A stretch of DNA of 64,000 bases from the NCBI RefSeq assembly GCF_030684315.1, contig NC_081401.1:3668582-3732581 (forward strand), given 5' to 3'. Each line of letters starts with the position of its first letter. Positions within the stretch are counted from its first letter, which is position 1. The translations under genes and the position numbers were made by a program. The notes beneath the pieces are model-generated. The model was given only the letters and a program-made list of their open reading frames with translations, was not told the origin of the DNA and did not search any database. Origin of the DNA: Stegostoma tigrinum (taxonomy: Eukaryota). Shown here one piece after another: positions 19,905-63,648 of this stretch.

Positions 19905-21440
19905 ACAAACCGCATTGCATCGCATTTCTCTGCATTTAAATGCATCTGCCAGGTATCTGCTCACGTATCAATATCTCGCAGCATCATCCTCAAAATACAC
20001 TCCTCGAACTTACTCAGTAAAATTAGAAAATTTTCATAACTTGACTTCAACATCCATCTCCAAATCGTTGATTTAAATCAGAAAAAGCAAAGGTCCCAAA
20101 ACTGATCCTTGGGGCGCACCATTTTCAGCTCACCACCAGTCTGAGAAATGTCTTGTGTACCTGTCCTTTGTTTACAGTCTTTTAGCCAACTCTGATCTGT
20201 GCTTCCATTTACCCATGAATCCCAAACATTTCTAAATTTCTAACCATTTTGGTTTGTAACCCCGTATCAAATGATTTCTGACTGTCCAAATATAAACTAT
20301 CCAGAGCACTACCATCATCCATTCCCTTCTTTACTTTGTCAACAACTCAATCAGACTCATTCGGCATTGCATGCCCTTGGCAAGCCAAATAAAAACCTGA
20401 AGAACCGTGGATGTTATAAATCAGGAATGAAAGCAAAGTTGCTGGAAAAGCTCAGCAGGTCTGGCAACATCTGTGGAGGAGAAAACAGAATTAACATTTC
20501 GGGTCCGGTGACCCTTCCTCAGACTGATGAAGCCACATTGGCTGATCAGCATTATCTGATTTTTTTTTCTCTGAGTCTATTTTACCTGACACTGTATAAT
20601 CGCCTGTCAGTTTTTTCCACTCCTGACATGAGGTTTCCTGGTTTATCTTTTTTTTTCAAACAACAATTCCATAGTTACGATCTTCCAGTCTGACAGAAAT
20701 AATCCGTTGCTCGGAGAGGCCTGAAAAATTTCTATCAACGGCTTTGCAATTTGCATACTAACGTTTTTCAGCAATCTAGAATGTGTCTCATCTCTGTCAA
20801 ATGGCTTGTCTCCCTCGTGTGCTTTCAAGCTTATATAACCTCTCCTTCTTGCATTACTCTCGTGCTCAATTGTTCAATACGTATATTTGCGAATGGGCCA
20901 TTGACAACATCTTCTTACTGTTAAAGACAGTAACAAGCATTTGGTTGGTAGCTCTGCAATACAAATTACATCAGTGAGCAGCTTACTCTGCTTGTTTCTT
21001 GTGACACATACTCTATTCTTCAATAATATTTTATTATTAACATGTTTGAAGATTTCATAATTTGTTTTACCACAACCTGACATACTCTCTCTATGCTTTC
21101 TCTTCGCCATCAGCATTCAAGCCTGAGTCACTTTTCCACTTTTGAGAATCTCTTCCTGATTTCTATTGCAATCATCATTCCTGTATGCATCATATCCCTC
21201 AATTGTCTTCCTTACTTTCTTATTAAAGACGTTAAACATCGAGGATACTCGAGCTTTGGATGCCTTGATTGCATTTCTCATGAATATACACCTGTCTATT
21301 CACCTCTCTTTTGAAATTCACCCATTTTCTGACCTTGTCTTATTTGGCAAAACACATTTCCAAGTAATGTACTCTTTGTCAACTTTAAGACAAAGTCTAG
21401 TCTTTTCCTGTCTGACATATGAATCATTGCTTTAGCAACA
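19905..21440 (-). mobile_element. Old CR1 LINE ORF2 fragment (duplication copy A)
   Basis: Minus-strand remnants LNAEKCDAMRF, PQGSVLGPLLF and SDWKIVT..LFEKK. Homologous to 50673-51975. Confidence 0.75.
20388..20523 (-). mobile_element. Short PLE family-2 terminal element with hammerhead motif, inserted in CR1
   Basis: Minus strand CTGAGGA-A-GGGTC-ACCG-GACCC-GAAATGTT at 20522-20493. The paralog at 51151-51277 is flanked by a perfect TSD, TGACAAAGCCA. Confidence 0.8.
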
Positions 21441-21599
21441 TTTAAGAGACATCTGACCAAATACATGAATAAACAGGAAATACAGAGATGTGCAAAAAGT
21501 TATTTTTTGGGGGGGTTTTAAAGATATAATGTAGTCAGCACACTTTTAGTGGGACCAGGGCCTGATTCTGTGCTGTAATCTTCTTTGTTCTTTGACATT

Positions 21600-21830
21600 C
21601 TCACATTGAAACACACAGAGTGATTCACACTCAAACTCACAAATAACACACAAAATGGCAAACTCACATACCTACTCCCAACAACACTCAGGTACACACG
21701 GTAACACACACAGTCAGACACATGCACAATGACGTACTCACAAAGACACACACTCACCATAACACACTTGTACATACACTGGCAAACACGCAATGACACA
21801 CACGGTGAAACACTCACAATGACGCACAGG
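21600..21830. repeat. Degenerate CA-rich low-complexity tract
   Basis: Seen directly. Confidence 0.8.
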
Positions 21831-22122
21831 AGGGTCATTTTTCAACAACTCAACATCTCAGAATAATCGTCACCCATTCAAGATAGAGATTGGAAGCAAA
21901 TTCATCTCTCTTCGAGTACTGAATTTGTGCAAATCTTTCCCATGAAGGGCTGCCTAGGTTGTGTCACTGAGTATATTTCAATCCAAGGGTGAGAGACTTG
22001 TCGTCAGGAAGTGAATCAATCGTAATGGGGAAAAGGCAGGAAAGCCGAATTGAGGATGGTCAGATCAGCCCTGATTTCTTGAATGGCCTGAACAGCCGCA
22101 ATCCAATTCAACGTCTTAGATC

Positions 22123-22300
22123 ATAGATTCCCTACAGTATGGAAACAGGCATTTCGGCCCAACAAGTCCAGACTGAAACACAGAAAATCCCACCCAGATC
22201 CACCCCGCTGTAACTCACGTTATCTACACACCCTTGAACATGGTAGGCAATTTACCAAGGCTAATCGACCTAACCTGCACATCTTTGAACTGTGGGAGGA
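22123..22300 (-). mobile_element. HE1-type SINE 3' half
   Basis: Reverse complement of the SINE tail: 'ccctacagtatggaaacaggc..ggcccaacaagtcca' and 'cctaacctgcacatctttgaactgtgggagg'. Confidence 0.8.
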
Positions 22301-22984
22301 TGGTTATTGGATGCACTGTCCCGAGGACCATATCTCCCAAATAAAAGGAAGAATTCCAAAGAGCAAGAAAAGGAATAAACAAAATGGTGAAGCTGTGTGG
22401 CAGAGTGAGATAACAGAGACATCGTGAATCTACAAGCTGATTATGTTGCTTCGCCTGAACAAAGCTGCTGAAATTTGTGCTGGTAAAAACAAATTACATA
22501 ATTAAAAACACATTTTTACACAAACTGTTTTGAGACCAGTATTGAAAGGAAAGAGATATTCAAAGCTGTGAAGGAAAAGGAGAGACAAGAATTTTAGCAG
22601 TTAACACAATACTTTTAAAATGTTTTTAAAAAAATCCTCCATCAGAGACTGTCCTGAACAATTGAAACCGATGAACGTCAGTTTGAATCAATAGTTGGAG
22701 GAAGGTGAATTAATGGAATTGTTCCTCAATGAGAAGTGGTGAAAATATCTGGAAGTCCAATAAAATATGGAATTTATGGTCATTTGTTGAGAACAATAGT
22801 CTGTATATGTGATAGACGTCTTTCAGTTCACAAGAAGAGGTTACAATAATGAAAGCATATGTACAATCGACATGATAAAGAAACAGATGTGGTATGCAGG
22901 AATCATTTCAGCAAAGATCAGCAGAGCAAAACTTGCAAGTTGCAAACATTACCAGTGTTCCAGCTCAACAAGTGAGAGAAGCAG

Positions 22985-24560
22985 GGAACTCCAGGTGCCG
23001 CAAATGAGGAACAAAAGCAAATTTGTGGGAAAAGCTCAGCGGGTCTGGCAGCATCTGTGAAGGAAAAAACAGAGTTAATGTTTCGTGTCTGGTGGTCCTT
23101 CCTCAAACGTGATGGTGGCTGGGAAACATCAGTTTATATACAGAAAATAGGGAGTCGGGTGGGATTGTGAGTAAATGACAGCATCGAGCCCAAAGAGAGA
23201 GAAAGACAGTTGGACAGACAAAGGAGTTGTTAACAGTCAGGCTGGGAGGGTAGGTAGTCGTTAATGGGGACTGCTAGTGAATATCAATGGGGGTGCGTAA
23301 TAGGAGTATGTGGTAACAAGGCCTGGTGTCGGGGGTTGAGGGGCTGGGACTTGGGGAGATAAGGCCGTGAAATTATTGAACTCAATATTGAGTCTGGTGA
23401 GCTGTCGGGTCCTCAAGCAGAAAATAAAGTGTTGTTCCTACAGCTTGCGTTGGGCTTCAGTGGAAACCTGTAGCAAGCCAGAGACAGAGATGTTGGCAGG
23501 GAGCAGGGGGTACATTGAAATGACAGGCAACGGGTAGTTCAGGGACGTTTTGGCGAGCAGAAGGCTAAGTCTAGAAGGCTGCAGGGTTCCCAACGGAAAA
23601 ATGAGCTGCTGCTATTTCAGGCAGTACTAAGCTTTGCTGGAGCACTGCAACAAATCTGAAGAAGACCTACTGGCCAGAGCATACGGTGGTGGTGTTGAAG
23701 TAGCAAGTAGCAGAAAGTTCGGGGTCAGTTTTTGTACACGTAACCTAGGTGTTCTGAAAGCCATCACCCTGTGTGCACTTTTTTTCCAAAATTTAGAGGA
23801 AAACACGTTCTGAGTACAGTTTCACTGGGAAGGTATGTCTGGGGCCTTGAAGAGCGAAGAGGGAGGATGTACACATGACACCTTCTGCAGATGTGACATT
23901 TACTGCAATTGCACGGACAGTTGCTGTGAGGCTGTTGGGACGTGTTGGGAGTGAAGCAGGAATGGACAAAGGTGTCTTGGAGGGAGTGGTCATTGCGGAT
24001 GATGGACACGGGTGGGGAGAGGATGATGTGACTAGCTGTGGCATACCAGTAGAGATGGCGAAAATGTGGGCTGATGATCACTTGAATATAGATACTGTTG
24101 GGAAGTAGCTGACGGTAAAAGCGACAGTAAAGTTGTTATGGGGGGTGCAAGTTGGGGCGAAGGGAGGGATAAAAGCTGAAGAAAGCTGAGGGCCCTGACA
24201 ACTGCAGTCCTGTAAAATCCTCAATGGAGGACGCAGGTGTACATTTTGGATGCCCCTTTAGCGAAGTCCACATTATCAAAACAGAAATTGCAGAGGCAGA
24301 CAAGCTGGCAGAATGGAAAGTATGGGAATCAGTTGGTTTGTAACAGATGTCCACGGGAAGCTTCTGTCCAGAAACAGAGATGGTGAGCAAGAAAAGCGAC
24401 GGCGAGAAGTTAATAGTGAAAGTGAGAGTGGAAAAGAGCACATCTTTGTCCTTAAGAAAGTGAAATGAGTTAGAATTGTCGTCTTTCAGAGTGAGAGCAA
24501 GCTCAGCCAGGGTAATGAGGATGGTGGTGAATGGGGATGAGAGCTCTCTGAAACCATCCT
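22985..24560 (-). mobile_element. Degraded Penelope-like element (family 2) fragments
   Basis: Minus-strand DICYKPTDSH, FRHL..SHI..RNDHSLQDTFVHS and CNCSKCHIC, plus a pseudo-LTR at 22985-23110. Paralog at 57540-59190. Confidence 0.75.
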
Positions 24561-26181
24561 GATGAACGGTACCTCAGGTTTCATTGAAAATTCTGGCAGA
24601 GAAGTTTGCAATGGTGAACATACTCACTTTGAATGCCATATTTTGGAAAAACAAGCAGTGGTAACATGAATAATGGAGATGAATCAGCCAGGAAAATGAA
24701 GAAGAGATGCAAACACAGCAGCACTGGAAGAGAAATGTCTGACTAAAAGAGTGTGGGATCAATAAGATTTGCAAACAAATATTATTTTCTCCTAATTGTG
24801 GAATAATGTAAAGTTGGGCTAAAATGTAACGATGTGACATTAGTTGAGACAGATTTTATTCCAGCATTTCAAAGATGCAGTCACAAGTTGTTTTCTTCTG
24901 TAATAAAGGAGATGTCCAAGAGACAAAAAATGTGATTATGGATGGAATAATGAAATATAAAGCAGATAGGTAAAGAATTCGTGCAGCTGGCTAAATGTCG
25001 ATAGATGAGGTAGTGGTATTTGTGATGTGAAAAAATGTAGTACTTTTAGAATTGAATGAAGCAGCCAATGCCCTTTTGGCATTATAATACAATGAATGAT
25101 ATCACACGATCATCGATGAGATTCTTCTGATAATCTATCCAAACAAACAAGCAATGAGCTGACATCAACTTTGGTAAAAGTAGGCCATGTGAAGACTTCA
25201 CTACAGCCATGGCCTATTCTGTGGAAGAGAATGTGTCAAAGGGAGAGAGACACACATTCATAAAACTGAATAATTAGAGAAAAGCTGTAGAGTTGACAGC
25301 ATTATTTGAAAAGTTATAATATCTAGTAATTCCCTGCATTTAGTAAATTATTAAACATGTTCTGAACAGCTGCATTGGACAGGTAAAGTGATAACTAAGA
25401 TTGGGACGCACTGATGCTAAAGAAAAATGCATGTCAAGTTAAAATGATACATTCATTTCCCCATTTATATTGATTGCAACCTTTTAGCCCCTGACCAATT
25501 ATTCGAGGTGATGAGTCACTGTGCACCGGAAGCACCCAGTTGACTGTGATTGTCTTGCACAAAAATACATCAGACAGAAGGATCAGTGAAGATATACAAA
25601 ATGATGCTGATGCAGAAGAGAAGACGATATAATCCAAAGAACAGCTGCCTGAAACTAAGTGTTCTGGGGAACATTTAGACGAGTTTGCCCTAGTGAACAC
25701 AGAGATATGAAAAGTTTGTGAGGTCCGAGAAAGAACTGCCACAAATGTTCTGTGACCAAAGCATGGAATCCTGAAAGATGCAAGGAATGGAAGAGCATAG
25801 ATATCGCAGTTCGATTTGTCATGAAGCAGATTATAGGTACATAATAAAGTATCAGAAGCATTTGGGGCCGTGGAGGTGAGACACACACAGCGACAGTTTG
25901 ATTCACATTGGAACAAAATACACCCATTGCCACTTCAGTCGAAATATACGAGATAATCCTTCATTATTTTTTTCTCTCATTGCTCTAGATCTACTGTTTC
26001 AGTCAAACAAAAAAACAACTACCTCACGATGTTCGTTAAATGAATGTGAATAGTGTGAGTGATGTAACTAACTAATTCCCTGAAGGTTTGGTGCATTAAT
26101 AAATGTAGACTGCTTTCCATGGCTTGGACTTGGCTAATCAGAGTGTTTCAGCTCGACAGAAACCGTTCACTCTCACACAAA

Positions 26182-26431: not shown

Positions 26432-27153
26432 TAGAACATAGAACATAGAACATAGAACAGTACAGCACAGAACAGGCCCTTCAGCCCACAATGTTGTGCC
26501 GACCATTGATCCTCATGTATGCACCCTCAAATTTCTGTGACCATATACATGTCCAGCAGTCTCTTAAATGACCCCAATGACCTTGCTTCCACAACTGCTG
26601 CTGCCAACACATTCCATGCTCTCACAACTCTCTGCGTAAAGAACCTGCCTCTGACATCCCCTCTATACTTTCCACCAACCAGCTTAAAACTATGACCACT
26701 CGTGCTAGCCATTTCTGCCCTGGGAAATAGTCTCTGGTTATCAACTCTATCTATGCCTCTCATTATCTTGTATACCTCAATTAGGTCCCCTCTCCTCCTC
26801 CTTTTCTCCAATGAAAAGAGACCGAGCTCAGTCAACCTCTCTTCATAAGATAAGCCCTCCAGTCCAGGCAGCACCCTGGTAAACCTCCTCTGAACCCTCT
26901 CCAAAGCATCCACATCTTTCCTATAATAGGGCGACCAGAACTGGACGCAGTATTCCAAGTGCGGTCTAACCAAAGTTTTACAGAGCTGCAACAAGATCTC
27001 ACGACTCTTAAACTCAATCCCCCTGTTAATGAAAGCCAAAACACCATATGCTTTCTAAACAACCCTGTCCACTTGGGTGGCCATTTTAAGGGATCTATGT
27101 ATCTGCACACCAAGATCCCTCTGTTCCTCCACGCTGCCAAGAATCCTATCCTT
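26432..27153 (-). mobile_element. Young 5'-truncated CR1 LINE inserted antisense in the copy 2 intron
   Basis: Nearly identical to 54361-55076, with a (GTTCTAT)n tail. Absent from the paralogous site at ~61035-61045. Confidence 0.96.
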
Positions 27154-27560: not shown

Positions 27561-27825
27561 AGTCTGTGATTGTATGAACCCTGTGTTCTCATGCCTGCTT
27601 TCATTTCATCTTGCTGGTGTTACAATAAAGTTCCTCAGTGATCCCTTGTATTTGTGGACTCATTGTTATCCCTTATAAACTGACCTCAGTGACAGTTGAC
27701 TAAAGACATTTTGCATATTGCTGATTGAATGAATCTGACTCACATTATCATATGTCAGGCGCTCTCATAATTATTATCTTGAATCAGGCATTGGCACATT
27801 ATTCACTGCTGTTTTTCTCTCACAG

Positions 27826-28721
27826 CAAACTTGGCTACAATTTGGATTATTTCACAAAGAAACTGCGGCCTTTCCAAGTGTGTCACTGTTTACACGTTGG
27901 CCATGGCAACAACAGATCTACTGGTCCTGATAAACAATGTGGTACTCTATTATATCCTCAGTTATCATTTTCCTTGGTCATTCTTGTTCCATACTCCTCT
28001 TTGCAGAGTCATTATATACCTGACTGCTGTCACTCCTGATTTATCTGTTTCGTGCGTTGTCTGCTTCACATTTGACCGATTTGTATTGATCTGCTGCCAG
28101 AAGATCCAAACCAAGTATTGCACCAGAAGAACTGCAATCAAGCTGGTGATAACCATCGCTGTTGTGATTGTCGTGAAGGACATATCAGTATTGTTTGCTT
28201 ATGAACCTGAACAAATTATAAACAAAGTGCAGTGGGGCTGCTGATCATTAGAAGCATATTTTTTTTCATCTTCTGCTGGTACAGGTTATGTCTAGTTTTA
28301 CAGCGCTTGTGTCGTTTGGATTCCCTTTTCTCTGATTATCTTATGCAATTCATTAATTATCAAATGTATTCTACTGGCTAATAGAACCCGCACTGGACTT
28401 CGGAGCTGCAAGAGTGGGAATGAAAGCGACTCAGAAATTGAGAACCGCAGAAAGTCCATCATTTTATTATTCTCCATAACAGTAAGTTTCCTTTTGCTCT
28501 GGTTGCCAGTTGCCGTGGCTTTAGGCATTACCAAACTGACAGACACCATTTATTACCGAGGGAAGTTCACTGACGCTGAAATTATTGCCAGGGAATTGGT
28601 AGATATCTTGAGGTGTTTCCGTTTTTTTCTAAACCCTTGTTTCTATGCAGCGACCCAGAGCAAATGCAGAGCTGAGCTGAAAAATATGGCAAAATATCAA
28701 TGGATTTTATTCTGGAGATAG
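27826..28721 (+). pseudogene. GPR139-like copy 2, coding exon 2 (two nonsense codons)
   Basis: Acceptor tttctctcacag|CAAAC. One frame reads ANLATIWIISQRNCGLSKC..AMATTDLL..FTFDRFVLICCQK..ENRRKSIILL..FLNPCFYAATQSK. Stops: TGA at 28242 (paralog CGA) and TAG at 28293 (paralog TGG). Confidence 0.93.
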
Positions 28722-28889: not shown

Positions 28890-29026
28890 AGTTCCAAAGA
28901 AGGGTCAGCGGACCAGAAATGTTATCTCTGATTTCACTTCACAGATGATGCCAAACCTGCTGAGCTTTTCCAGCAGAATTAAGTGTTTGTTTCTGATTTA
29001 CTGCATCCGCGATTCTTTCAGTTTTG
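28890..29026 (+). mobile_element. Short PLE family-2 terminal element (decayed hammerhead at its 5' edge)
   Basis: Starts agttccaaagaagggtcagcggaccagaaatgtt and is flanked by acctttgatgtg / acctttgattgt. Paralog at 62750-62886. Confidence 0.75.
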
Positions 29027-32060: not shown

Positions 32061-32069
32061 AAATCAAAC

Positions 32070-32290
32070 CTTCACTCATTATCCCTATGCTACCTACATT
32101 CTCCAGTCCCAGCCCCCTCTCTATTTATTTCTAAGCTCTGTTCCACCCTCCCACCCCCATTTCTAAAGAAGGGTCCTGGCCCGAAACATCAACGTTTCTG
32201 TTCCTCTGATGCTGCCTGGTCTGCTGTGTCCCTAAAGTTCCGCACTGTGTTATCTCTGGCTCCAGCATCTGCAATTATTGTTGTCTCTTT
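32070..32290 (+). mobile_element. PLE family-1-like pseudo-LTR fragment with decayed hammerhead
   Basis: ctaaagaagggtcctggcccgaaacatc at ~32163-32190, followed by the 'ctccagcatctgca' tail. Confidence 0.75.
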
Positions 32291-38377: not shown

Positions 38378-38540
38378 TCATATGTTGTGGAACTGGATGA
38401 ACACTGAAGGCTAAGTGGCATCAGAGGAGTAGGAAAGCTGATGTTTCGGGCCGAGCCCCGAGTAGAGGAAACTTTTGAATTCACCCAGCTCTACGCCTTG
38501 TTCTCGCAAATTCTCCAGCATCAGCAGTTCCTACTAGCTC
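38378..38540. mobile_element. Short rearranged PLE family-1 pseudo-LTR remnant (inverted arm plus tail)
   Basis: 'ctggatgaacac..ctgatgtttcgggcc' followed by 'ttctccagcatcagcagttcc'. Confidence 0.6.
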
Positions 38541-39955
38541 CTGGCATCATACGCTATTTGCTGATCATACTAATACCAGTGGCACGGTACTGTTGTTACT
38601 TTTGCACCATTTCCAGACTTATCTGTGGAATGGCATGCTTTTTTTGCCCCTGAAAAATGCCTGTCGAGCTCAAATGTTTCTGACGTAAATGTTGTTGGCA
38701 TGTGTGTGACTTTTTGCATATCAATGTAATATTTCTTTCAGTAAGACCAGGCACAGGGCGAGGAAACTCCCTGAGGGCAGCTCTCACTGTGAGTTTATAA
38801 ATGTTAAATTGTCGTGAGTGTGGCCAGAAATGGACTGCGACATAAACGAGCAAAAATTTTGTTGCTGTATGGAACTCTGTGGGTGAGTGACTGTCTTGAA
38901 TCGAACAGACTTTGGAAACTATGTGTTTGCTGGTGTTCTGTCACTGTTAAATTATATTCAGTGTGGGACATCATTTTACTCTAAACCTAAGCAGATGCAG
39001 TGACTTGCTGATAGCATTTTCTGATCCTATATAATCTTATTCCTGGTGCATAATTCTAAGTATAATTGGGTGGCATGCACACTGCTTTTTCAAAATAAAC
39101 GAACAGCAGTAAACAGATATGAATAGAGATGCCAGAGATTTCTGAATACGCATGGTTGGAACTTTGCAGAATACGAACGAAGTATTAAAGTTTTATGAGT
39201 CTCAATCAATTCCACACCACTTGACTCTATCTGCACAGCATAATTACATGACAATCTCCTTCAGTTTCTCCCAAATGATCTCTTATTCTCCACGTGGTAT
39301 CAATGGCAAACCTCCTCAAGTAAATCATTAGCAGGGTGACCTCGGGACAGGTCTCAGTGAGGGGTTCTGAGTATCAATGTGGACTTGTTGGCCTGAAGCA
39401 CCTGTTTCCACCCTGTAGGGATTCGACAATGATTCTATGATAATGATTCTATTTTCTGTATTCTTTGATTTATTGTTGTCAGTTTGTTGGTGACTGTCAG
39501 ATTCAATCCAGAATGCACCACTCTCACAGGTTCTCTACGTTCAGTGTTAAAACCACAAGATAGTTCAAGGTTCACCTGATCACCACACAGAATTCCCGAA
39601 CACCGGAATAACAGAAATGACTGCTCACTGTTCCCTAATTCATATGAACGCACTGTTGTAGAATGATGTGTATACCGGATATGCACAGACAGTCGATACA
39701 ACACCATCGTTTTTCTGATTCTTTGAAGATCACAAAACAGTCTAATTCTCCAGCTGAGTCATTGAATGTTGTGTGCAGAATAATAAAACCACAGTCATCT
39801 AATAATACTTCATTCGGACTACACCATCCAATCAAACCTATTTTCCGTCAGCTTAAGAGATAATGGGAACTGCAGATGCTGGAGAATCCTAGATAATAAA
39901 GTGTGAAACTGAATGAACACAGCAGGACAAGCAGCATCTCAGGAGCACAAAGGCT

Positions 39956-39983
39956 GACGTTTCGGGCCTACACTCCACATCAG
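39956..39983 (-). ncRNA. Hammerhead motif in the inverted pseudo-LTR (core mutated)
   Basis: Minus strand CTGATGT-GGAGTGTAGGCCC-GAAACGTC; the A9 position is changed. Confidence 0.5.
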
Positions 39984-42317: not shown

Positions 42318-42549
42318 AACCTTTGTGCTCCTGAGAATCTGCTTGGCCTGCTGTGTTCGTCCAGCTTCACACTTTATTATCTTCCTTCAGCTTAATGCAT
42401 TCATACATCTGTTTCAAAGGCTACAGGGACTGATCCAAGGACGATGGGATCAGGTAGCACCAGAAATTATCGAGCACGAATGAATAAGCTCATCCTTGGA
42501 ACAGTTCCTACCACCACAGAGCTATACCAAGCATAATTATTGTTCGTAA

Positions 42550-43455: not shown

Positions 43456-43474
43456 TTATTTGACTCTCCCTGCC

Positions 43475-50672: not shown

Positions 50673-51975
50673 CCAAACCACATTGCATCGCATTTCTCTG
50701 CATTTAAATGCATCTACCAGATATCTGCCAAGTTGTTAATGTCTCGCAGTGTCATCCTCACAATTCATGCCCCCACGTTACTTCGTATAATTTACAAAAT
50801 GTGAAGATTTTGAATTCAACACCCATCTCCAAATCGTTGATTTCAATCAGAAAATAAGAAAGGTTCCAACACGGATCGCTGGGGACCATCAATTTCAACT
50901 CATCTCCAGTCTGAGAAATGGCATCATACCTGTCCTTTGTTTTCAATATTTGAGCTAACTCGAATCCGTGTTCCCAAACGCCGATCAATCCCAAACATTT
51001 CTTAATTGCTAACCATTTGTTTCGTAATCCATATAAAATGATTTCTGACTGTCCAACTATAAAACATCCATAGCATCATCCATTGCCTTCTTCACTTTGT
51101 CAACAAACTCAATCAGATTTGACAGGCATTGCATGCCCTTGACAAAGCCAAATAAAAGCCAAAAGAACTTTAGATGCTGTAAACAGGAACAAAAACAATG
51201 TTGCTGGAATAGCTCAGCAGGTCTGGCAGTATCTGTGATGGAGAAAACAGAACTAATGTTTTGGATCCGGTGAGAACTGACAAAGCCACATTGGCTGTCC
51301 AGCATTTTCTGATTTTTCTCTCAGTCTATTTTCCCTTACATTGTATAATCACCTGCATAAGTTATTTTTTCCACTACTGACATGAGACTGGCAAGTCTTT
51401 GGTTTCCTGGGTCATTGTTTGCTATTATTTCAAATAACAGTTCCATATTTACGATCTTCCAGTCTCATAGGGCTAATCCAGTTTGCAGAGAGGCCTGAAA
51501 ATTTTCTGTCAACGACTTTGCACTTTGCACTTTGCACGCTAACCATTTTCAGCAATCTTGACTGTGTCTCATCTCTGTCTAATCGCTTGTCTCCCAAGCG
51601 TGCTGCCAACCTCTGCACAACCTCTCCTTCTTGCATTGCTATCCTGCTCAATTTTTTAATAAGTACATTTTTGAATGGGCCATTGACAACATCTTCTTAT
51701 TGGTAAAGACAGAAGCAAAGTATTTGCTTGGTAGATCTGTAAAATAAGTTGCTTCAGTCTGCAGCTTACTCTGTTCAGTGTGATGCATAATCTATCATTC
51801 AATAATATTATATTATTAACATGACTGAAGATATCACCATTTGTTTCAATACAACCTGACATACTTTCTCTCTGCTTTCTCTTAACCATGCTTATTCAAG
51901 CCTGAATCTCTTGCCCACATTTGTGATACTGTTCCTGATTTTTATTGCAATCATCATTCTGATATGCATCATATA
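50673..51975 (-). mobile_element. Old CR1 ORF2 fragment (duplication copy B) containing a short PLE element at 51151-51277
   Basis: QCLSNLIEFVDKVKKAMD. Homologous to 19905-21195. Confidence 0.78.
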
Positions 51976-52064
51976 CCAGAAATAACACGGTGTGAAGCCG
52001 GATGAACACAGCAGGCCAAGCAGCATCAGAGGAGTAGGAACATTTGATATCTTGGGTCGGGATA

Positions 52065-52197
52065 CTTGGAGGAAGCCCATGCAGACGCGGGGAGAACATG
52101 TAAACTTTACACAGAATGTCACCCGAGGGTGGAATCGAATGTGCATCCCTGTTGCTGTGAGGCATCAGTACTAACCACTGAGCCAACATGCCACCCT
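52065..52197 (-). mobile_element. HE1-type SINE 5' part
   Basis: Minus strand gggtggcatgttggctcagtggttagtactgatgcctcacagc..attcgattcc, with A- and B-box-like motifs. Confidence 0.85.
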
Positions 52198-52872
52198 AAA
52201 AAAAAGAATCACAGCAAAAAATATGGTCTTGTCTTCTTATAACTGTAGTGCCTGTACAATTGGGAGGTTATGATTCAGTTATACAGGGCATAGGTGCATC
52301 CACATCCGAAATGTTGTGTACAGTCCTGGGCACCGTATTTACAGAAGGATGTTAATGCTTTAAACGCAATTCAGAGAAGCTTTCCCCGACTAAAAGTTCA
52401 AATGAGAGGATTACCTTATGAGGAAAAGCTAAACTTCCCATGAGTCTCGCGTCAGTGGGAAGGAAATTAGACAACAAGATTCTCAGGGACAAGATTTAGA
52501 AGCAACTAGATTGATTTGAGACAAACAACATGATTTTGTAAGGAGGAGGGCGTGCCTCACTAACGTGATGAAGATTCTTTTGAGGTGGTGATGAAAACAA
52601 TGAGGGAAAGGCAGTTGGTGCTGTTGACACGGACTTCACTGAAAAGTTTGACAAAGACCTTCATGGTAGACTTTTACGAAAGGTGAAGTCACATGGTGTG
52701 AGGTATGAGCTGACAAGATGGATACAGAACTGGCTTTATCACAGGAGACAGAAGGTAGCGGTGGAAGGATGTTTTTCAGAATGGAGGGTTGTGACTAATG
52801 TTGTTCCATAGGAATCACTGCTGGAACGTCTGCTGTTCATTATCTACAGAAATGAATCCGAGGAAAACGTAG

Positions 52873-55076
52873 AAGGAGAAGGAGAGGATTAGGCAGAATG
52901 GGAGGATATTTAATTGGGGAAGAGGAATCTATGATGCGATTAGACATGAGTTAGGAAGCATGGGCTGGGAGCAGTTGTTCCATGGTAAGGGAACTATCGA
53001 CATGTGGAGACGGTTTAAGGAACAGTTGTTGGGAGTGATGAGTAAATATGTCCCTCTGAGACAGGCAAGAACGGGTAAGATTAGGGAACCTTGGATGACG
53101 AGAGCGGTGGAGCTTCTAGTGAAAAGGAAGAAGGTAGCTTACATAAGGTGGAGGAAGCTAGGGTCAAGCTCAGCTAGAGAGGATTACATGCAGGCAAGGA
53201 AGGAGCTCAAAAATGGTCTGAGGAGAGCCAGGAGGGGGCACGAGAAAGGCTTGGCAGAAGGAATCCGGGAAAACACAAAGGCATTTTACACTTATGTGAG
53301 GAATAAGAGAATGGTCAAATAAAGAGTAGGGCCGATCAGGGATAGCATAGGGAACTTGTGTGTGGAGCCTGAGGAGGTAGGGGAAGCCCTAAATGAGTTT
53401 TTTGCTTCTGTCTTTACGAAAGAAACAAACTTTGTAGTGAATGAAACCTTTGAAGAGCAGGTGTGCATGCTGGAATGGATAGAGATAGACGAAGCTGATG
53501 TGCTGAAAATTTTGTCAAACATTAAGATTGACAAGTCGCCAGGCCCGGATCAGATTTGTCCTCGGCTGCTTTGGGAAGCGAGAAATGCAATTGCTTCGCC
53601 ACTTGCGAAGATCTTTGCATCCTCGCTTTCCACTGGAGTCGTACCTGAGGACTGGAGAGAGGCAAATGTAATTCCTCTCTTCAAGAAAGGAAATAGGGAA
53701 ATCCCCGGCAATTATAGACCGGTAAGTCTCACGTCTGTCGTCTGCAAGGTGTTAGAAAGGATTCTGAGGGATAAGATTTATGACCATCTGGAAGAGCATG
53801 GCTTGATCAAATACAGTCAACACGGCTTTGTGAGGGGTAGGTCATGCCTTACAAACCTTATTGAGTTTTTTGAGGATGTGACTAGAAAAGTTGATGAGGG
53901 TCGAGCTGTGGATGTGGTGTATATGGACTTCAGTAAGGCATTTGATAAGGTTCCCCATGGTAGGCTCATTCAGAAGGTCAGGAGGAATGGGATACAGGGG
54001 AACTTAGCTGCTTGGATACAGAATTGGCTGGCCAACAGAAGACAGCGAGTGGTAGTAGAAGGAAAATATTCTGCCTGGAAGTCAGTGGTGAGTGGAGTTT
54101 CACAGGGCTCTGTCCTTGGGCCTCTACTGTTTGTAATTTTTATTAATGACTTGGACGAGGGGATTGAAGGATGGGTCAGCAAGTTTGCAGACGACACAAC
54201 GGTCGGAGGTGTCGTTGACAGTGTAGAGGGCTGTTGTAGGCTGCAGCGGGACATTGACAGGATGCAGAGATGGGCTGAGAGGTGGCAGATGGAGTTCAAC
54301 CTGGATAAATGCGAGGTGATGCATTTTGGAAGTTCGAAAATGAAAGCTGAGTACAGGATTAAGGATAGGATTCTTGGCAGCGTGGAGGAACAGAGGGATC
54401 TTGGTGTGCAGATACATAGATCCCTTAAAATGGCCACCCAAGTGGACAGGGTTGTTAAGAAAGCATATGGTGTTTTGGCTTTCATTAACAGGGGGATTGA
54501 GTTTAAGAGTCGTGACATCTTGTTGCAGCTCTATAAAACTTTGGTTAGACCGCACTTGGAATACTGCATCCAGTTCTGGGCGCCCTATTATAGGAAAGAT
54601 GTGGATGCTTTGGAGAGGGTTCAGAGGAGGTTTACCAGGATGCTGCCTGGACTGGAGGGCTTATCTTATGAAGAGAGGTTGACTGAGCTCGGTCTCTTTT
54701 CATTGGAGAAAAGGAGGAGGAGAGGGGACCTAATTGAGGTATACAAGATAATGAGAGGCATAGATAGAGTTGATAGCCAGAGACTATTTCCCAGGGCAGA
54801 AATGGCTAGCACGAGGGGTCATAGTTTTAAGCTGTTTGGAGGAAAGTATAGAGGGGATGTCAGAGGCAGGTTCTTTACGCAGAGAGTTGTGGGAGCATCG
54901 AATGCGTTGCCAGCAGCAGTTGTGGAAGCAAGGTCATTGGGGTCATTTAAGAGACTGCTGGACATGTATATGGTCACAGAAATTTGAGGGTGCATACATG
55001 AGGATCAATGGTCGGCACAACATTGTGGGCTGAAGGGCCTGTTCTGTGCTGTACTGTTCTATGTTCTATGTTCTAT
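52873..55076 (+). mobile_element. Young 5'-truncated CR1 LINE (HER1-like)
   Basis: Continuous ORF2 frame with one stop at 53320-53322. (GTTCTAT)n tail. GTAG on both sides, at 52869-52872 and 55077-55080. Confidence 0.97.
53356..54987 (+). CDS. CR1 ORF2 reverse transcriptase (543-aa open segment of a truncated element)
   Basis: KSPGPD, PEDWREANVIPLFKKG, NYRPVSLTS, QHGF, YMDFSKAFDKVPH, QGSVLGPLLF, KFADD, RPHLEYC. Confidence 0.93.
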   Translation: MCVEPEEVGEALNEFFASVFTKETNFVVNETFEEQVCMLEWIEIDEADVLKILSNIKIDKSPGPDQICPRLLWEARNAIASPLAKIFASSLSTGVVPEDWREANVIPLFKKGNREIPGNYRPVSLTSVVCKVLERILRDKIYDHLEEHGLIKYSQHGFVRGRSCLTNLIEFFEDVTRKVDEGRAVDVVYMDFSKAFDKVPHGRLIQKVRRNGIQGNLAAWIQNWLANRRQRVVVEGKYSAWKSVVSGVSQGSVLGPLLFVIFINDLDEGIEGWVSKFADDTTVGGVVDSVEGCCRLQRDIDRMQRWAERWQMEFNLDKCEVMHFGSSKMKAEYRIKDRILGSVEEQRDLGVQIHRSLKMATQVDRVVKKAYGVLAFINRGIEFKSRDILLQLYKTLVRPHLEYCIQFWAPYYRKDVDALERVQRRFTRMLPGLEGLSYEERLTELGLFSLEKRRRRGDLIEVYKIMRGIDRVDSQRLFPRAEMASTRGHSFKLFGGKYRGDVRGRFFTQRVVGASNALPAAVVEARSLGSFKRLLDMYMVTEI

Positions 55077-56264
55077 GTAGCTGGTCTGATGAGTAAGTTT
55101 GTGGATGATGCAAAGATTGGTGGAGTTACGAATATTGAGGGTGATTGTCATAGGATACAATAGGATATAGATCAGTCGGAGGCATGTGCAGAAAAATGGA
55201 AGATGAAGTTTAATCCAGAGAAATTGGGAGGTGATGCATTTTGGAAGGTCAAGTGCAGATGGAAATTTATGCAGTGAATGTGCAAACCCTTCGGAGTATT
55301 GATATGCAGAGATTTGGATGTGTAGATCTACAGATCAAACAAAGTAGCAGCACAGGTAGACACGGTATTAAAAAAAATGCCTGTGGTATCTTTAACGTCA
55401 AAGGAAGAGATATTACGTTTGAGAGTAGACAAGTGATGCTGCAACTTTACAGGACTTTAGTTAGGCTACACTTGGAATATTGCATGCGGCTCTGTTCACA
55501 ACACTACTCGAAGAATGTTGATCATTTGGAGGTGGTGCAGAAAATGTTTAAAAGGATGTGGACTGACATGGAGGATTTTAGCTATGCAGGAAAATTGGAT
55601 AAATGGCGTGTGTTTACACTAGAAAACAATCAGTTCAGGGGCGACCTGACAGAATTTTACAAGTTTCTGAATGTCATGGATATCGAGTGGAAAAAAATGA
55701 TGTCTTTTCCCAGGGTGTAAGGGTCAATTACTCGGGAACACAGTTTCGAGGCTCAGTGTGTGGCGGGGTGAGTCAGTGGTCGGAGGGGTAGGTGTATATA
55801 AAACAGATGTGCAAGGCCCGTTTATCACGCAAAAGTGACTAGAATGTGCTGCCAGATGCGGTGCTGAAAGCAGGTACAATCGCAGCATTCAAGAGGCACT
55901 TGGACTCTTCACTGCCCCTCACTGTCAACGGCACCACCAAACATGTCCCTAATTCTCACTGATGCCCCTGTAGAGGGTGCAGAGGACAGGAGAGACCCAC
56001 AGTGTGCCCTTCACAACTATCACATCTTTCACTTCTGCAGTGGACAAAACAAGATGCAAAACTTAGAGAGTGATTTGGACATAAACACAAAAATCCCCCC
56101 TGCCAAATAGCTCACATTGACAGTTCTGAAGAGAGCTGTCTCTCCGAGAGTCTCACAGCTGACACATACTTGTTATCTGCAGATGAACGCCTCAGTCAAT
56201 CTCTCTCCATTTACACACACACTCACAGATTCCATACTGTGAAGAACTCAGCCCATCACATTTT

Positions 56265-56480: not shown

Positions 56481-57534
56481 TAATAATGCTTAAGGATCTA
56501 ATTTAATATGAAATTTCAATGTTGCATTCTGACAGTTTTTCACATTTTATTTTATTTGATGAGCTGTTTGAGGAACTATATTATGACCTCAGTGATATAT
56601 CTCCAAATATTACAAAAACAGCCACAAGAAATATCCACAGTATCGATATCACGAGAGCCTCACAGAATCAGTACCACTTTAGGGTCAATTCTATGGTTTG
56701 GGTCAGAAACATTGTGTGAGAAGTGTGCAATTTTGCAAAGTTGTGATATCTGCTGACCACTGTGCAGCCGTCAGTGATCTCGTTGAATCCTTATCTGGTG
56801 ATAATGAGAAGGGCTTTGGTTAAACCCCTGATGGTAGCTGGACGCACTCTCCCGCGGTCCATATCTCACAAAAAATAGGAAGAATTCCAAACAGCAAAAA
56901 GAAGAAATAAACAAAATAACGAAACAGTGTGACTGAGTGAGATAACAGAGGAATTGTGAATCTACAAGCTGATTATATTGCTTTTCCCGATCAAAGCTGC
57001 TGAAATTTGTTCTGTCTCAAAAAAGTGACACAATTACACACATTTTGACACAAAGTGTTTTTAGACCAGTGTTGAAAGGAAGTAGATATTCTAAACTGTG
57101 AGGGGAAAAGAGAGTAAAAAGTCTTAGGAGTAAACACATTCCTTTGAAATATTGAAAAAAAAAATCATCCACCAGGGATTGTCCCGACTAATGGAAACTG
57201 ATGAATGTCAGTTTGAATCATAGAGGAAGGTGAATTAAAGGACATTTTCCTTAAAGAGAAGGCTGGAAAATATCTGGAAGACCAATAAAATATGACATTT
57301 ACGTTCATTTGTCGAGAAAAAACAGTCAATGCATGTGATAGACATATTTCGGTTCATGAGAAGAGCTTCCAATAATGAAAGCGTACATGTGATCAAACTT
57401 GAGAAAGAAGCAGATATGTTCGGCCTGAATCGTTACAGCAAGGATCAGCACAGCAAAACGTGCTCGTTGTCATGATTACCTGTGTTCTAGCTAAACAAGT
57501 GAGAGGAACAATGTCTTTGTCACGTATAAAAACT

Positions 57535-59190
57535 AAAAACTAATAGAACTGCAGATGCTGTAAATTTGGAACAAAAACAAAGTTTCTGTAAAGGCTCAAC
57601 AGGCCTGGCAGCATCTGTGAAGGAGAAAACAGAGTTAATGTTTCTTTTCCGGTGACAGATCCTCAGGACTGAGGATGGCTAAGAAAACTTCAGTTTATGT
57701 GCAGAAAATAGGTAGGTCGCTGGGGGAGGGAGTAAACGATAGGATAGAGCAAAAAGAGAGAGAAAGGCAGGTGGACAGACAAAGGAGTTGATCAGGAACA
57801 GGCTGGGAGGGTAAATAGTTGTCAATGTGGACTGCTAGTGACTAACAACAGTGGGTGTGTAATGGCCGGCTACGTGGGAAGAAGGCCTGGTGTGTGGGGT
57901 TGGGGGGCTCGGAGATGGGAGAGTTTAGGCCCTAAAATTATTGATTTCAGCATTGAGTCGGAAGGGCTGTGGAGTCCCCAGGCGAAAAATGAAACCTTGT
58001 TCCTGCAGCTTGCATTGGGCTTTACTGGAAAACTGGAGCAAGCCAGAGACAGAGATGTTGGCCAGAGAGCAGGGTGCCATTGATGTGACAGGCAACGGGT
58101 AGTTCAGGGTCTTTTTTGCGAGCAGGAGGTGAAGTCTAGATGGCTACAGGGTTCTCAATGGAAAAAAAAAATGAGGCACTGACATTCCGCGAGGGCTAAG
58201 CTTTGCTGGAGCACTGCAACAAATCTGAAGCAGAGCTGTTGGCCAGACAATACTGTGGTGGTGTTGACGTGAGAAGTAGCAGAATGTTCAGGGTCAATTT
58301 TTGGAGACAGAACCGAATTATTATGAAAGCCATCACCCAGTGTGCACATCGTTTCCAAAATTTAGAGGAAACCACGTTCTGAGCACAGGCTCACCAGGAA
58401 GGTATTTCTGGGGCCTTGGAGAGTGAAGAGGGAGGATGTAAACATTACATCTTCTGCAGATGTTACATTTTCCGCAATTGCAGGGAAAGTTGTAGTGAGG
58501 CTGTGGGGATGTGTTGGGAGTGAAGCAGGAATGGACAAAAGTGTCTTGGAGGGAATAGTCATTGTGGATGATGGACACAGGTGGAGAGAGGATGATGTGA
58601 CTAGCTGTGGCATTCCACTAGCGATGGCAAAAATGGAGGCTTATAATCATGTGTATGTAGATACTGTTGGGATGGTAGCAGAGGATAAAAGGGACTCTAT
58701 TATTGTTGTGGGGGGTGCAGGTGGGGGGCAAAGGAGTGACAAAAGCTGAAGAAAGCTGAGGGCCCTGACAACCACAGTCCTGGGGAATCCTCGATTGAGA
58801 AAGAAGGTGTACATTTTGGAGGCACCCTTATCGACGTCCGCATCATCAAAACAGAAATAGCAGAGACAGAGGAGCTGGAATAATGGTAATGAAGTCCTTA
58901 CAGGAAACAGGGCGTGAGAATGTAAAGCCAAGGCAAAAGTAGGGCTCAGTTGGTTTGTAACGGATGTCAGCAGGCACTCTATCTCTCGAAACAGAGATAG
59001 TGAGCAAGAAAAGGGAGGGGTGAAAGGAATTAATGAAAATGAGAGCGGAATGGGGCACTGCTTTGTTCTTAAGAAAGTGAAAAGAGTTAAAAGCGTCGTC
59101 TTTTATGGTGAGAGCACCCTCAGCCAGAGGGATGGGGTAGGTGCTGAATGGGGATATCGAGCACTGTGAAACCATCCGGATGAACCGGTA
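57535..59190 (-). mobile_element. Degraded Penelope-like element (family 2), paralog of 22985-24560
   Basis: DIRYKPTE, ASKMYTFFLNRGFPRTVV, SLQDTFVHS, CNCGKCNIC. Confidence 0.78.
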
Positions 59191-60787
59191 CATCAGGGTT
59201 CATTGATGATTCGGGCAGAGAAGTGTGCAATGGTGAACACAAACAATTTGAATGCCATCTTTTGGAAAAAACGGACAGTGGTAACATGAAAAGCGGAGAT
59301 GAACCAGCCAGGAAAATGAAGGAGATGCAAACACAAGCAGCAGTGGAAGAGAAATATCTGACTGAAAGGGTGTTGCATCGATAGGATTTGTACACACATT
59401 TTATTTTCTCCTGATTGTGGAAGAATGAATCATTGGGGTAAAATTTAAGGATTTCGGATTCGTTCAGAGACATTTTATTCCTGCATTTCAGAGATGCAAT
59501 CACAAGTTGTTGTCTTCTGTAATAAAAGAGATCGTCAAGAGAAAAAAAATCTGATGACAGATGAAATAATGAAAAGTAAATTAGATGGGGAAAGAATTAG
59601 TGCAGCTGGCTAATTAGTTGATAGATGAGGTCGTGGTATTTGCGATGCAAGGAAATATAATATTTGTAAAATTGAATGAAGCAGCTGATACCCCATTGGT
59701 ATGATCCTCCAATGAATGATATCACAGGACCATCGATGAGGTTCTTCGTTTAATCTATCCGAACAAACAGGCAATGAGCTAACATCAACTTTGGTAAAAG
59801 TAGGCCATGCAAAGACTTCACGACAGAAGTGGCATATTCTGTGGAATCGAATGCCGCACAGGGAGAAAGAAGCACAATGATAAAACTGAATAACTTCCAG
59901 AAAAGTTGTAAAGTTTACAGCATTGCTTGAAAAGTTAGAATATGTGGTAACTCCCTGCATTTGGTAAGCCATTAAACATATTCTGAAAATCTGCAATACA
60001 CAGGCAAAGTGGTGACTAAGATTGGGAAGCACTGATTACAACGAAAAATGCATGTCAGGTTATCATGGTACAGTCATTTACCCATTTATATTGATTGTAC
60101 ACTTTTAGCCCCGACCAACTATCAGAAGTGATGAGACACTATGCATCTGAACCACCCAGTTGTTTGTTGATTTTCGTGGGCGAAATACACCAGATAGAAG
60201 GATCAATGAAGTTATACAAAACGATAAAGATGCAGAAGAGAAGGCGATATAATTCAAAGAGCAGCTGCCTGAAACTCAGTGCTCGTGGCAACATTGAGAC
60301 CAGTTTGGCCTGGTGAACGTAGAGATATGAAAAGGTTGGTAGGTCCCAGAAAGAACTGTCACAGATGTTCTGAAACTAATTCTCAAAGACACAAGAAATG
60401 GAAGAGCAGAGATATCACAGTTGGATTTGGTGTGAAGCAGATTATAGATACATAATATTCCATCAGAAGCATTTGTGGCCGCGGAGGTCAAACACACTTC
60501 GTGACAGTTTGATTGACATCAGAAGAAAAATTTCCATTGCCAATTCAGTTGAGAGAGACCAGATATTCCTTCACTGATTTTTTTTCTCATTTCTACAGAT
60601 CTGCTGTTTCACTCAAACAAAAAATTACCTAACTATGTTTGTTAAATGACTGTGAATAATGTGAGTGATGTAACTGATTGATTCCCTGAAGGTTTGCTGC
60701 TTAAATAAATGTAGACTTCTTTCTTAGTCTTGGATGTGGCTGATCAGAGTGTTTCAGCTCGACAGAAACCACTCACTCTCACACAAA

Positions 60788-61460: not shown

Positions 61461-61710
61461 ATATTAACGTTGCATTCTAATATCTGATTTCATTTCATCT
61501 TGCTGGTGTTACAATAAAGTCCCTCAGTGATCCCTTGTATCTGTGAGCTCATTGTTATCACTTTTCAACTGATCTCAGTGACAGTTGACTAAAAAAACAT
61601 TTCGCAGACTTCTGATTGAATGAAACTGACTCGGATTATCGTATTATTCATGATTATTATCCTGAATCAGGCATTGGTACATTATTCACTGTTTTTTTTT
61701 TCTCTCATAG

Positions 61711-62602
61711 CAAACTTGGCTACAATTTGTATTATTTCACAAAGAAAATGCGGCCTTTCCAAGTGTGTCACTGTTTACATGGTGACCATGGCAACAACAG
61801 ATCTACTGGCCCTGATCAACAATGTAGTACTCTATTACATCTTCAGTTATCATTTTCCTTGGTCATTCATGTCCCTTACTCCTCTTTGCAGAGTCAACAG
61901 TCAGTGACTGCTGTCACTCCTGATTTATCTGTTTGGTGCGTTGTCTGCTTCACATTTGACTGATTTGTCCTGATCTGCTGCCAGAAGATCCAAGCAAAGT
62001 ATTGTTCCAGAAGAACTGCAATCAAACCGGTATTAACTATCACGTTTGTGATTGTTCTGATGGAAATACCTGTATTGTATGCTTATGAACCTGAACAAAT
62101 TATAAACAAAGTGCAGTGGGGCTGCCGATCAAGAGAAGCGTTTTTCTCATCTTCTGCAGGCACAGGATATGTCTGGTTTCACAGCGCCTGTGTCGTTTGG
62201 ATACCCTTTTCTCTGATTGTCTTGTGCAATTCATTAATTATCAAATGTATCCTACTGGCAAATAGAATCCACACTGGGCTTTGGAGCTGCCAGGGCGGGA
62301 ATGAATGTGACTCAGAAATGGAGAACCGCAGAAAATCCATCATTTTATTATTCTCCATAACAGTAAGTTTCTTTTTGCTCTGGTTACCACTTTCCATGGC
62401 GTTCGGCATTACCAAACTGACAGGCACCAATTATTACCAAGGAAAGATCACAGACCCTGACTTGATCGCCATGGAATCGGCAGAAATGTTGACATATTTT
62501 AGCTGCTTTCTAAACCCTTGTATTCATGCAGCGACTCAGAGTAAATTCAGAGCGGAGCTGATAAAAATGGCCAAATGTCAATGGATTATATTCTGGAGAT
62601 AG
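61711..62602 (+). pseudogene. GPR139-like copy 3, coding exon 2 (frameshift and nonsense codon)
   Basis: Acceptor ttctctcatag|CAAAC. ANLATICIISQRKCGLSKCVTVYMVTMATTDLL. Net 1-nt deletion at ~61897-61905. DRF has become D*F (TGA at 61961-61963). The frame is then open to ..FLNPCIHAATQSKFRAEL..WR*. Confidence 0.93.
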
Positions 62603-62749
62603 GTTTGACAGAAGTCTGCAAAATAGCTTCAGCCAAACAATTGGTTCTGATCAACAAAGTTTTATTTTCTCGTCTGTCTTTATCAAAAAATATACACGAT
62701 TCATTTCTATGTTTATGTGTTTTGGATTTCCTATTACACATTTGATGTG

Positions 62750-62886
62750 AATTCTGAGGAAGGGTCAGCAGCCCGGAAATGTTAAGTCTGATTTCTCTTC
62801 ACAGATGGTGCCAGGCCTGCTGAGATTTTCCAGCAGAATGATGTGTTTGTTTCTGATTTACACCATCAGTGGTTCTTTCAGTTTTT
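62750..62886 (+). mobile_element. Short PLE family-2 terminal element beginning at the hammerhead motif
   Basis: CTGAGGA-A-GGGTCAGCAGCCC-GGAAATGTT at 62754-62783. TTTGATGTG on both sides, at 62741-62749 and 62890-62898. Confidence 0.78.
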
Positions 62887-63648
62887 ACCTTTGATGTGGG
62901 TGCAGTTTTCTTTTTGCCTGATTCCCTGCTGAGTGTAGAAAACCTACTCCAGGAAATATGACGTATTATGCACTCAGATACGTAAAATGACCTGACGATA
63001 TGGATTTGAGCATTCTTATGAAAACAGATATTTCCATTGCAGCCAACAAGCTCCAAGGCTTCTGTTTTGAAACATTAATCAAGTTTCATTTAGTACAAAG
63101 CAATGGAGTGGTCTGTCCACATGTTTTGTTCATTCTCATGGCACTGGTACAGAATATTGCACAGGGTGGACATGTTACGGAAGAAAGGTCATCAATGAAA
63201 ACAAATCTGACTCTCTCTACACAAGTCATGTCCTGTGGAAGAAACAGTCCACAGCCATCGATGTCATATTTCATTTCATCGGTCATTACCATTTCTTACA
63301 TTTGGAGTTTCCTGCTCATGTAAACTCCAGTCTCGTGCCAATCATGAACTACAATCTTCAGAAATATGAAGTTTGTTAAGTGATGGAGAAAGCCAGCATG
63401 TTTGGCAGCATCTGTGAAGACAGGAAATGAATTTCATTTTTCGAGTGCAGTGACACTTCTTCAGAATGGTGAAGGAGCTGTATTGAGTTTTCTCTGAAGC
63501 AGTTGTGAAGTGATTGCGAAATTTGACACGACTCTTTTCACACGACCCTGTGGGTGAAACCGTCCACACCCAGTCCATCGATGCCACAGTTATGTTCCAC
63601 TCCCAAGGAAACAGGAGGAGAAGGGGCAGAAGGTTTAAATAACCCTGT

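Follow-up and report, generated by a model that had tools for sequence, protein, structure and literature searches.

Penelope-like element 3' ends in the window

We analysed a stretch of 64,000 nucleotides (nt) from Stegostoma tigrinum (contig NC_081401.1, positions 3,668,582 to 3,732,581), hereafter the window. It carries short dispersed units that are the terminal 86-138 bp (3' ends) of Neptune-type Penelope-like elements (PLEs), together with longer copies of their parents (Table 1). More than half of the scored insertions begin in a narrow interval at the front edge of a predicted hammerhead ribozyme, and this 5' boundary is the main subject of the present work. Element positions are numbered in the sense orientation from the first C of the CUGANGA box (+1), which places the predicted cleavage site right after +28. 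A profile search of the window yielded 25 matches, of which the weak ones at 8954 and 54638 were discarded; the remainder corresponds to 15 insertions. Boundaries were scored for 14 of them, the very old locus 49691-49889 being excluded. The latter consists of unit-like pieces, possibly an inverted pair, and does not enter the boundary counts.

Table 1. PLE-derived copies in the window, with start positions relative to the CUGANGA box and target-site duplications (TSDs).
Feature	Coordinates	Strand	Description	TSD
Family B solo unit	51151-51277	-	CUGANGA box gone through a later 9-nt deletion	TGACAAAGCCA, exact 11 bp, 51140-51150 and 51278-51288
Paralog of 51151-51277, same insertion	20388-20523	-	Box intact at 20516-20522; start about -3	6 exact bases remain
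Family B solo unit	62750-62889	+	Start -4	TTTGATGTG, 62741-62749 and 62890-62898; 9 bp exact, 12 bp with one mismatch
Paralog of 62750-62889, same insertion	28890-29026	+	Start -4	ACCTTTGAT, at 28878 and 29027; 9 bp exact
Family A solo unit	42710-42795	-	86 bp; short 3' end without tail; start +9 (+6 with 3-nt microhomology)	TTCTGCTCT, 9 bp, at 42701 and 42796; shares 3 nt with the box, so that the boundary is a range
Family B unit, old	63364-63457	-	94 bp	TCTTCAGAA, 9 bp, at 63355 and 63458; matches element -2 to +7 (9-nt box microhomology), so that the boundary is a range
Family B unit, old	13983-14091	+	Start about -4 to -2	Not found
Family A piece	51976-52063	-	Start +7 to +16; adjoins another repeat; scored outside the peak	Not found
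Family A copy, older sublineage	32095-32289	+	Extends to about -46 to -65; outside the peak	
Young family A head-to-head pair	63649-63874		Minus-strand left arm with short end, 63649-63742; plus-strand right arm with tail, 63743-63874	14 bp
Old family B head-to-head pair	12524-12785		Centre near 12657	Not found
Family A inverted pair	38383-38543		Left arm start about +9, right arm about +61	8 bp
Long 5'-truncated family A PLE	11436-12177	-	GIY-YIG-like C-terminus, 3' untranslated region, hammerhead core 11533-11560, tail; reference for contig alignment	Not found
Long 5'-truncated family A PLE	15053-16167	+	Hammerhead core 16037-16064	11 bp
Long family A PLE	39857-42386		Inverted arm 39857-40318 with tail; direct arm 40315-42386 with CX4CX2C linker and short end	9 bp
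Long family B PLE	57531-59200	-	Extends upstream of the box by at least 1.5 kb; parent type of the family B units; paralog at 22983-24700	Not found

The copies fall into two families, a young one (A) and an older one (B), whose cores are about 60-70% alike and whose upstream DNA is different. Units of these families end at about +95 or about +128, and the two 3' ends match the optional PLE tail, which is the interval between two internal start sites (PMC11167929). A hammerhead in the terminal repeat, an optional tail of 30-40 nt and inverted 5' copies, all typical of PLEs (PMC8557442), were found. The GIY-YIG domain cluster was the first Atlas match of the parent frame (0.93), and the upstream part of the parents matched HTH_animal clusters (0.96); Pfam searches of the decayed parent frames matched neither GIY-YIG nor reverse transcriptase (RT). 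Both families contain a CX2-5CxxC linker, which is described for Neptune or Nematis PLEs and is thus not exclusive to Neptune (PMC8557442). By this linker motif, the parents appear to be endonuclease-containing (EN+) PLEs of the Neptune clade.

An initial annotation of the window had described TSD-flanked elements of about 130 bp, running from the hammerhead core to the PLE 3' tail, as independent insertions. Their TSDs are real, being exact over 11 bp at 51151-51277 and over 9 bp at 62750 and 28890, and 9 bp long at 42710, and the similar piece reported near 63360-63467 is the unit 63364-63457 with its own 9-bp TSD. The units are TSD-flanked retrotransposition products from PLE 3' ends. The two paralog pairs, 20388/51151 and 28890/62750, sit inside segmental duplications (19.9-21.2 kb versus 50.7-52.0 kb, and about 22.3-29.6 kb versus 56.8-64 kb), and the six copies named therefore represent four insertions. 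The length of about 130 bp up to the tail holds for several units but not for those at 42710 and 63364. As a chance level, random boundary pairs (2000 per setting) gave matches of at least 9 bp in 2 cases when the zones were tight (±5) and in 44 cases when they were loose (51 x 51). No TSD was found at 11436, 12524, 13985, 51976 or 57531, and 7-9-bp matches near 22983, 32150 and 49691 were not taken as TSDs because their distances are doubtful. The inner TSD of the 20388 copy is similar to the CUGANGA box in reverse complement, and the two form a 9-bp hairpin (20515-20533); the paralog carries two base differences there, possibly through CpG decay.

The head-to-head pair 63649-63874, which the initial annotation had missed, provides direct evidence of insertion, since its target is present once in the paralog near 29467, an empty site. 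This was the only positive locus in a flank search for empty sites; nine other loci were tested and none was positive. Both arms of the pair start at base -4. Of the four inverted insertions, three have outer ends of unequal length, one long and one short. The long copies at 11436, 15053, 39857 and 57531/22983 extend 0.6-2 kb upstream, and no full-length PLE copy is present within the window. Some family A copies contain a 39-bp unit repeated about three times just past the endonuclease-coding region (11816-11924 and 41931-42044), a possible subfamily marker.

A sharp 5' boundary at the front edge of the hammerhead

Eight of the 14 scored insertions start between -7 and +9. Two others begin nearby, outside this interval (+7 to +16 and -46 to -65), and four are long. 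Considering only starts from -80 to +70, 8 of 10 fall in the 16-nt range -7 to +9 (binomial p about 6e-7, for a range picked post hoc). Copies were detectable down to about 45 nt, yet no start was seen between +17 and +60 or between -8 and -45. The earlier claim that the inner boundary lies at or a few nt from the CUGANGA box holds for 8 of 14 insertions, with the qualification that the box is deleted in the 51151 copy and that the boundary is a range in the 42710 and 63364 units.

The boundary was also examined outside the window, by aligning contigs of four public runs (X1, X17, X5 and X10) to 11400-11800. X1 may be the sample of the window itself, whereas X17 is labelled as a different organism and study. 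For X1, 155,215 contigs aligned, 11,334 of them only partly. Among the loose-end classes listed for X1, those with long heterogeneous flanks comprised 1105 and 353 contigs at the tail end, 823 at -1 and 206 at +6; for X17, 243 of 1471 partly aligned contigs ended at -1 among the classes listed, again with long heterogeneous flanks. An even spread would give 31 (X1) and 4 (X17) contigs per position, and the peaks at -1 exceed it about 26-fold and 60-fold. The loose letters are AT-rich with an agreement of 0.34-0.37. Long copies of other subfamilies do not explain the peak, because their loose letters would be G-rich and would agree with one another. Depth ratios across the boundary (1.9, 6.2, 7.7 and 2.2) agree in direction, although they are not copy numbers and carry little weight. 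The initial annotation had expected a sharp breakpoint peak at the hammerhead across many copies, and such a peak is present in two runs labelled as different organisms. The analysis confirms a sharp, non-random 5' boundary at the front edge of the hammerhead in more than one family, common to copies that differ in their upstream DNA.

X1 also contains tail-to-tail joints between a long end and a short end (11436/11469 and 11435/11468, 42 and 29 contigs), which suggests that inverted units form arrays or that the element inserted into its own tail.

The hammerhead motif

The anatomy of a minimal type I hammerhead is present: CUGANGA, helix II, GAAA, a palindromic 15.2-16.2 stretch and UH. The motif is exact in young A copies (e.g. 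11533-11560 and 63747-63774) and decayed in B copies. In family B, the start at -4 coincides with the outer pair of a 4-bp helix I; helix I is 2 bp in young A copies, where +1 to +6 can pair with +25 to +30. Hammerhead cells were paired in 69.8% of cases, against 17-45% when the motif was slid, but the value does not exceed that of shuffles (189 of 500). The folding energy of the units was no better than that of shuffles in four of four stretches (z -0.43 to +1.02). An Rfam scan returned no hammerhead match, only weak unrelated ones. The assignment as a putative hammerhead is one of motif anatomy, to which Rfam and covariation added no independent support. A degenerate 31-nt version of the motif gave 0 matches in viral, prokaryote-genome and metagenome contigs. 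In family A, about 8 nt of the hammerhead start recur at and just past the tail end (11436 and 11557-11564), a repeat that could favour unit-length tandem joints.

What sets the boundary

Relative to the predicted cleavage site, the boundary is displaced upstream by about 30 nt and falls beyond the fold; it can therefore be attributed neither to cleavage nor to a simple stall. Run-off on a cleaved template would be expected at +29, whereas the boundary is at -4 to +6, and cleavage was rejected as its main cause. Likewise, an enzyme copying 3' to 5' meets the fold at about +32; the strong RT stop at the ribozyme fold put forward in the initial annotation is at odds with this distance and with folding energies no better than those of shuffles. 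Two further candidates were discarded. No foreign exon precedes the units, as a splice acceptor at the boundary would require; YAG occurs at -23 in young A copies; of the two B parents, one has it at -13 and at -3 and the other near -13, and the older A copy lacks it. A motif shared by both ends that would force the junction agrees with 63364, but 62750 and 51151 do not conform to it. At 11532, the first base past the predicted cleavage site, a small class of tandem joints begins (two joints, depth 79 and 42, among 12 of 176 classes listed), which gives a weak hint that the hammerhead may sometimes cleave in vivo.

We favour, with a probability of about 0.45, a process in which reverse transcription is primed internally, near the front of the RNA, and proceeds until the template ends at a fixed 5' terminus, which is predicted about 4 nt before the CUGANGA box. 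Integration would begin with a staggered cut, attested by the TSDs and by one empty site and probably made by the PLE endonuclease. Synthesis would then start at either of two internal sites, as suggested by in vitro work on anole Poseidon, and the 3' ends at about +95 and +128 match such sites. The anole enzyme initiates internally at two sites and requires RNA to +172 and about 55 nt past the start (PMC11167929). The usual template would be the 5' pseudo-long terminal repeat (pseudo-LTR)/open reading frame (ORF) junction of the transcript, because RNA past the start site is required in the anole system and a lone pseudo-LTR does not provide it. The copy crosses the predicted cleavage site at +28 and ends at -4 to +6; its template was thus uncleaved or religated. 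Joining of one complementary DNA (cDNA) to the other target end, often with 0-3 nt of microhomology, would give a solo unit; a head-to-head pair, with one end long and the other short, would result from two cDNAs primed from opposite strands. In this view, the units would be dead-end by-products of a "strong-stop" class and would not form a self-propagating family.

Several data are consistent with run-off at an RNA 5' end. They include the peak at the box in the window and among the contigs, its recurrence in families with differing upstream DNA, and the common -4 end of both arms of 63649-63874. Initiator-like motifs place a transcription start at -4 in six of seven parents (TCT in 4/4 young A, YYANWYY in older A and in 1/2 B). 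The Penelope pseudo-LTR has an internal promoter (PMC2377424). With the anole enzyme, 5' shortening of the template shortens the product, both strands are cut and extended, and ribozyme cleavage is dispensable (PMC11167929). Other observations weigh against run-off. The initiator motifs were chosen post hoc; they are short and frequent, occurring at 1.1% and 0.3% of positions and more often in pyrimidine-rich DNA, and young A copies carry another at -29. The in vitro data concern Poseidon, not Neptune (PMC11167929). In D. virilis, transcription of Penelope begins 46 nt before an intron of 75 nt (PMC2377424); the end of this intron maps at helix I (PMC4209133), which puts the start about 120 nt upstream of the hammerhead, not at it. 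Since subfamily differences at -2, -4 and +5 clip the alignments, the contig peak can be placed no more finely than about -4 to +6. The loose-end classes listed were 24 of 957, ranked not by count alone, and X1 overflowed; X5 and X10 showed no boundary class among the six listed for each.

A possible but rather less probable explanation is release at the far edge of the hammerhead, linked to its fold or to a protein. The template would continue beyond the boundary; after the entire motif had been copied, the RNA would refold, or the cDNA would fold back on the mirror of helix I, ending synthesis or self-priming an inverted arm. The coincidence of -4 with the outer pair of helix I in family B and the potential +1 to +6/+25 to +30 pairing in young A fit this idea, as do contig joints linking -2/-4 to +31 to +38 (orientation not given); moreover, the 5' palindromes of pseudo-LTRs have been interpreted as self-priming (PMC3846280). 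The predicted cDNA hairpins are weak, however (-1.8 to -7.9 kcal/mol), and leave the 3' end of young A unpaired. The 2-bp helix I of young A, the folding energies and the position of about +32 expected for a plain stall also speak against release. Trimming is doubtful. In this scenario the GIY-YIG domain would, upon integration, cut a longer cDNA at a favoured position directly before the box. The anole enzyme favours ATT in its own ORF/pseudo-LTR junction on both strands (PMC11167929), ATT occurs at -4 in the older A sublineage, and endonuclease-mediated resolution has been invoked for the tail (PMC8557442); nevertheless, young A parents have CTCT and B parents AGT or CGT at the site, and the boundary is common to all. 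Recombination between the terminal repeats of a full-length insertion would leave solo pseudo-LTRs with the TSD intact, as for solo LTRs (PMC8969392), and solo pseudo-LTRs are on record, there without TSDs (PMC3846280). This route cannot produce head-to-head pairs with the same boundary, still requires a fixed 5' start, and would have to operate on the little homology that 130 bp offers; the window holds no full-length copy. We regard it as very improbable.

That the short unit is itself a self-propagating non-autonomous element, similar to a short interspersed element (SINE) or a retrozyme, is unlikely. Here short masters or tandem arrays of 126-131 bp would be transcribed and re-inserted by PLE proteins. 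In its favour, X1 contains unit-length head-to-tail joints, in which 14 contigs step back 126 and 6 step back 131, a single clade of the family B short copies was not rejected, and retrozymes have been derived from pseudo-LTRs, with monomers reported, among others, in one chondrichthyan (bioRxiv 10.64898/2026.07.22.740005). These 20 joints are a minority beside the 823 solo junctions, and a start at -4 is not expected of a cleaved retrozyme monomer. In an approximately unbiased (AU) test on a tree of 20 copies, a single clade of short copies was rejected for the whole set (p 1.25e-6) and for family A (p 4.5e-4) but not for family B (p 0.375); among the short copies, the youngest shares 98% identity with a long one. 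No B-box pattern was found on either strand in 20 of 20 copies, and the window contains no tRNA gene and no tandem array of the unit. The short copies as a whole are not one lineage, which argues against the single SINE or retrozyme proposed in the initial annotation. It is hardly credible that the copies reflect ordinary 5' truncation at random points and that chance or detection bias produced the clustering. Insertions in the window are few, such copies were used to build the profile, and 6 of 14 insertions start elsewhere, but searches with the long parents yield the same starts, the intervals +17 to +60 and -8 to -45 are empty, and the pile-ups of 823 and 243 contigs at a single position contradict it.

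If the boundary does mark run-off at an RNA 5' end, the units may also bear on how pseudo-LTRs are rebuilt, for which no obvious mechanism has been described (PMC2377424). A tentative and rather unlikely extension is a retrovirus-like strong-stop and strand transfer: the cDNA would run off at -4, jump to the hammerhead at the RNA 3' end and continue into the endonuclease/RT region. The target-primed start would lie about 130 nt from the RNA 5' end, and hammerhead dimerisation would keep the RNA 3' end adjacent. The hammerhead would thereby act as R region and jump platform, and solo and head-to-head units would be failed jumps. Were this true, the units would constitute a genome-wide fossil record of a strand-transfer intermediate.

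Minus-strand strong-stop DNA of retroviruses and LTR retrotransposons is a cDNA of fixed length that extends from an internal priming site to the RNA 5' end. Priming in the present case would occur on target DNA rather than on a tRNA, and the product is integrated with a TSD. To our knowledge, no RNase H has been found in PLEs.

Relation to known elements

Truncated PLEs, solo and inverted pseudo-LTRs, dispersed minimal hammerheads and pseudo-LTR-derived retrozymes with monomers are already known. The present copies resemble truncated EN+ PLEs and solo or inverted pseudo-LTRs in their RT-linker-GIY-YIG order with CX2-5CxxC, the hammerhead in a terminal repeat, an optional tail of about 30 nt, inverted 5' arms and TSDs of about 8-14 bp (PMC8557442, PMC3846280). 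Published truncation is high or variable, whereas more than half of the insertions scored here share one boundary across several families. Dispersed minimal PLE hammerheads (PMC4209133) have the same minimal type I form, with an extra base before helix II, a palindromic 15.2-16.2 stretch and a short helix I. Most occur singly and are described as "probably related to truncated PLEs" (Cervera and de la Pena 2014, PMC4209133). The parts of that report consulted give neither insertion boundaries nor TSDs, and under its circular-RNA model a stop at -4 would not be expected. Non-LTR retrozymes (PMC7229834; bioRxiv 10.64898/2026.07.22.740005) are likewise short, non-coding and related to pseudo-LTRs, with a type I hammerhead and TSDs of more than 4 bp; monomers occur among them, and rare unit-length tandem joints were seen here. 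They differ in being tandem repeats by definition with canonical hammerheads (PMC7229834) and in the circular RNA shown for some. The units described here are mostly solo or head-to-head, with a minimal motif and a start that precedes the cut site, and they group among long PLE copies.

A fixed 5' boundary at the hammerhead was not reported in the literature found, including passages of PMC6765202, PMC8969392, PMC12602865 and PMC7561263; repeat databases were not searched. The function of the PLE hammerhead has been termed unclear (PMC8557442), and its cleavage is dispensable in vitro (PMC11167929). A sharp boundary at its 5' edge rather than its cut site, seen at hundreds of junctions and in several families, constrains any model. 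Dispersed single hammerheads, as well as retrozyme monomers, find a simple origin in these units, and in genome annotation the units should not be filed as SINEs.

Other features of the window

The repeats of the window resemble those of cartilaginous fish. The segmental duplications contain decayed frames of rhodopsin-family G protein-coupled receptors (GPCRs) and a long interspersed element (LINE) with an RVT_1 domain (Pfam). The receptor genes are single-exon and form a tandem cluster with a unit of about 34 kb (1108-1956, 27783-28721 and 61964-62602). A young CR1/L2-type LINE at 52873-55078 has an open RT frame of 554 codons, and an inverted 3' copy of it at 26436-27153, 98% identical, ends in a 7-bp tandem tail. 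The family A piece at 51976-52063 adjoins a fragment at 52064-52200 that we take to be V-SINE-like, and the paralogous stretch near 21200 is without both.

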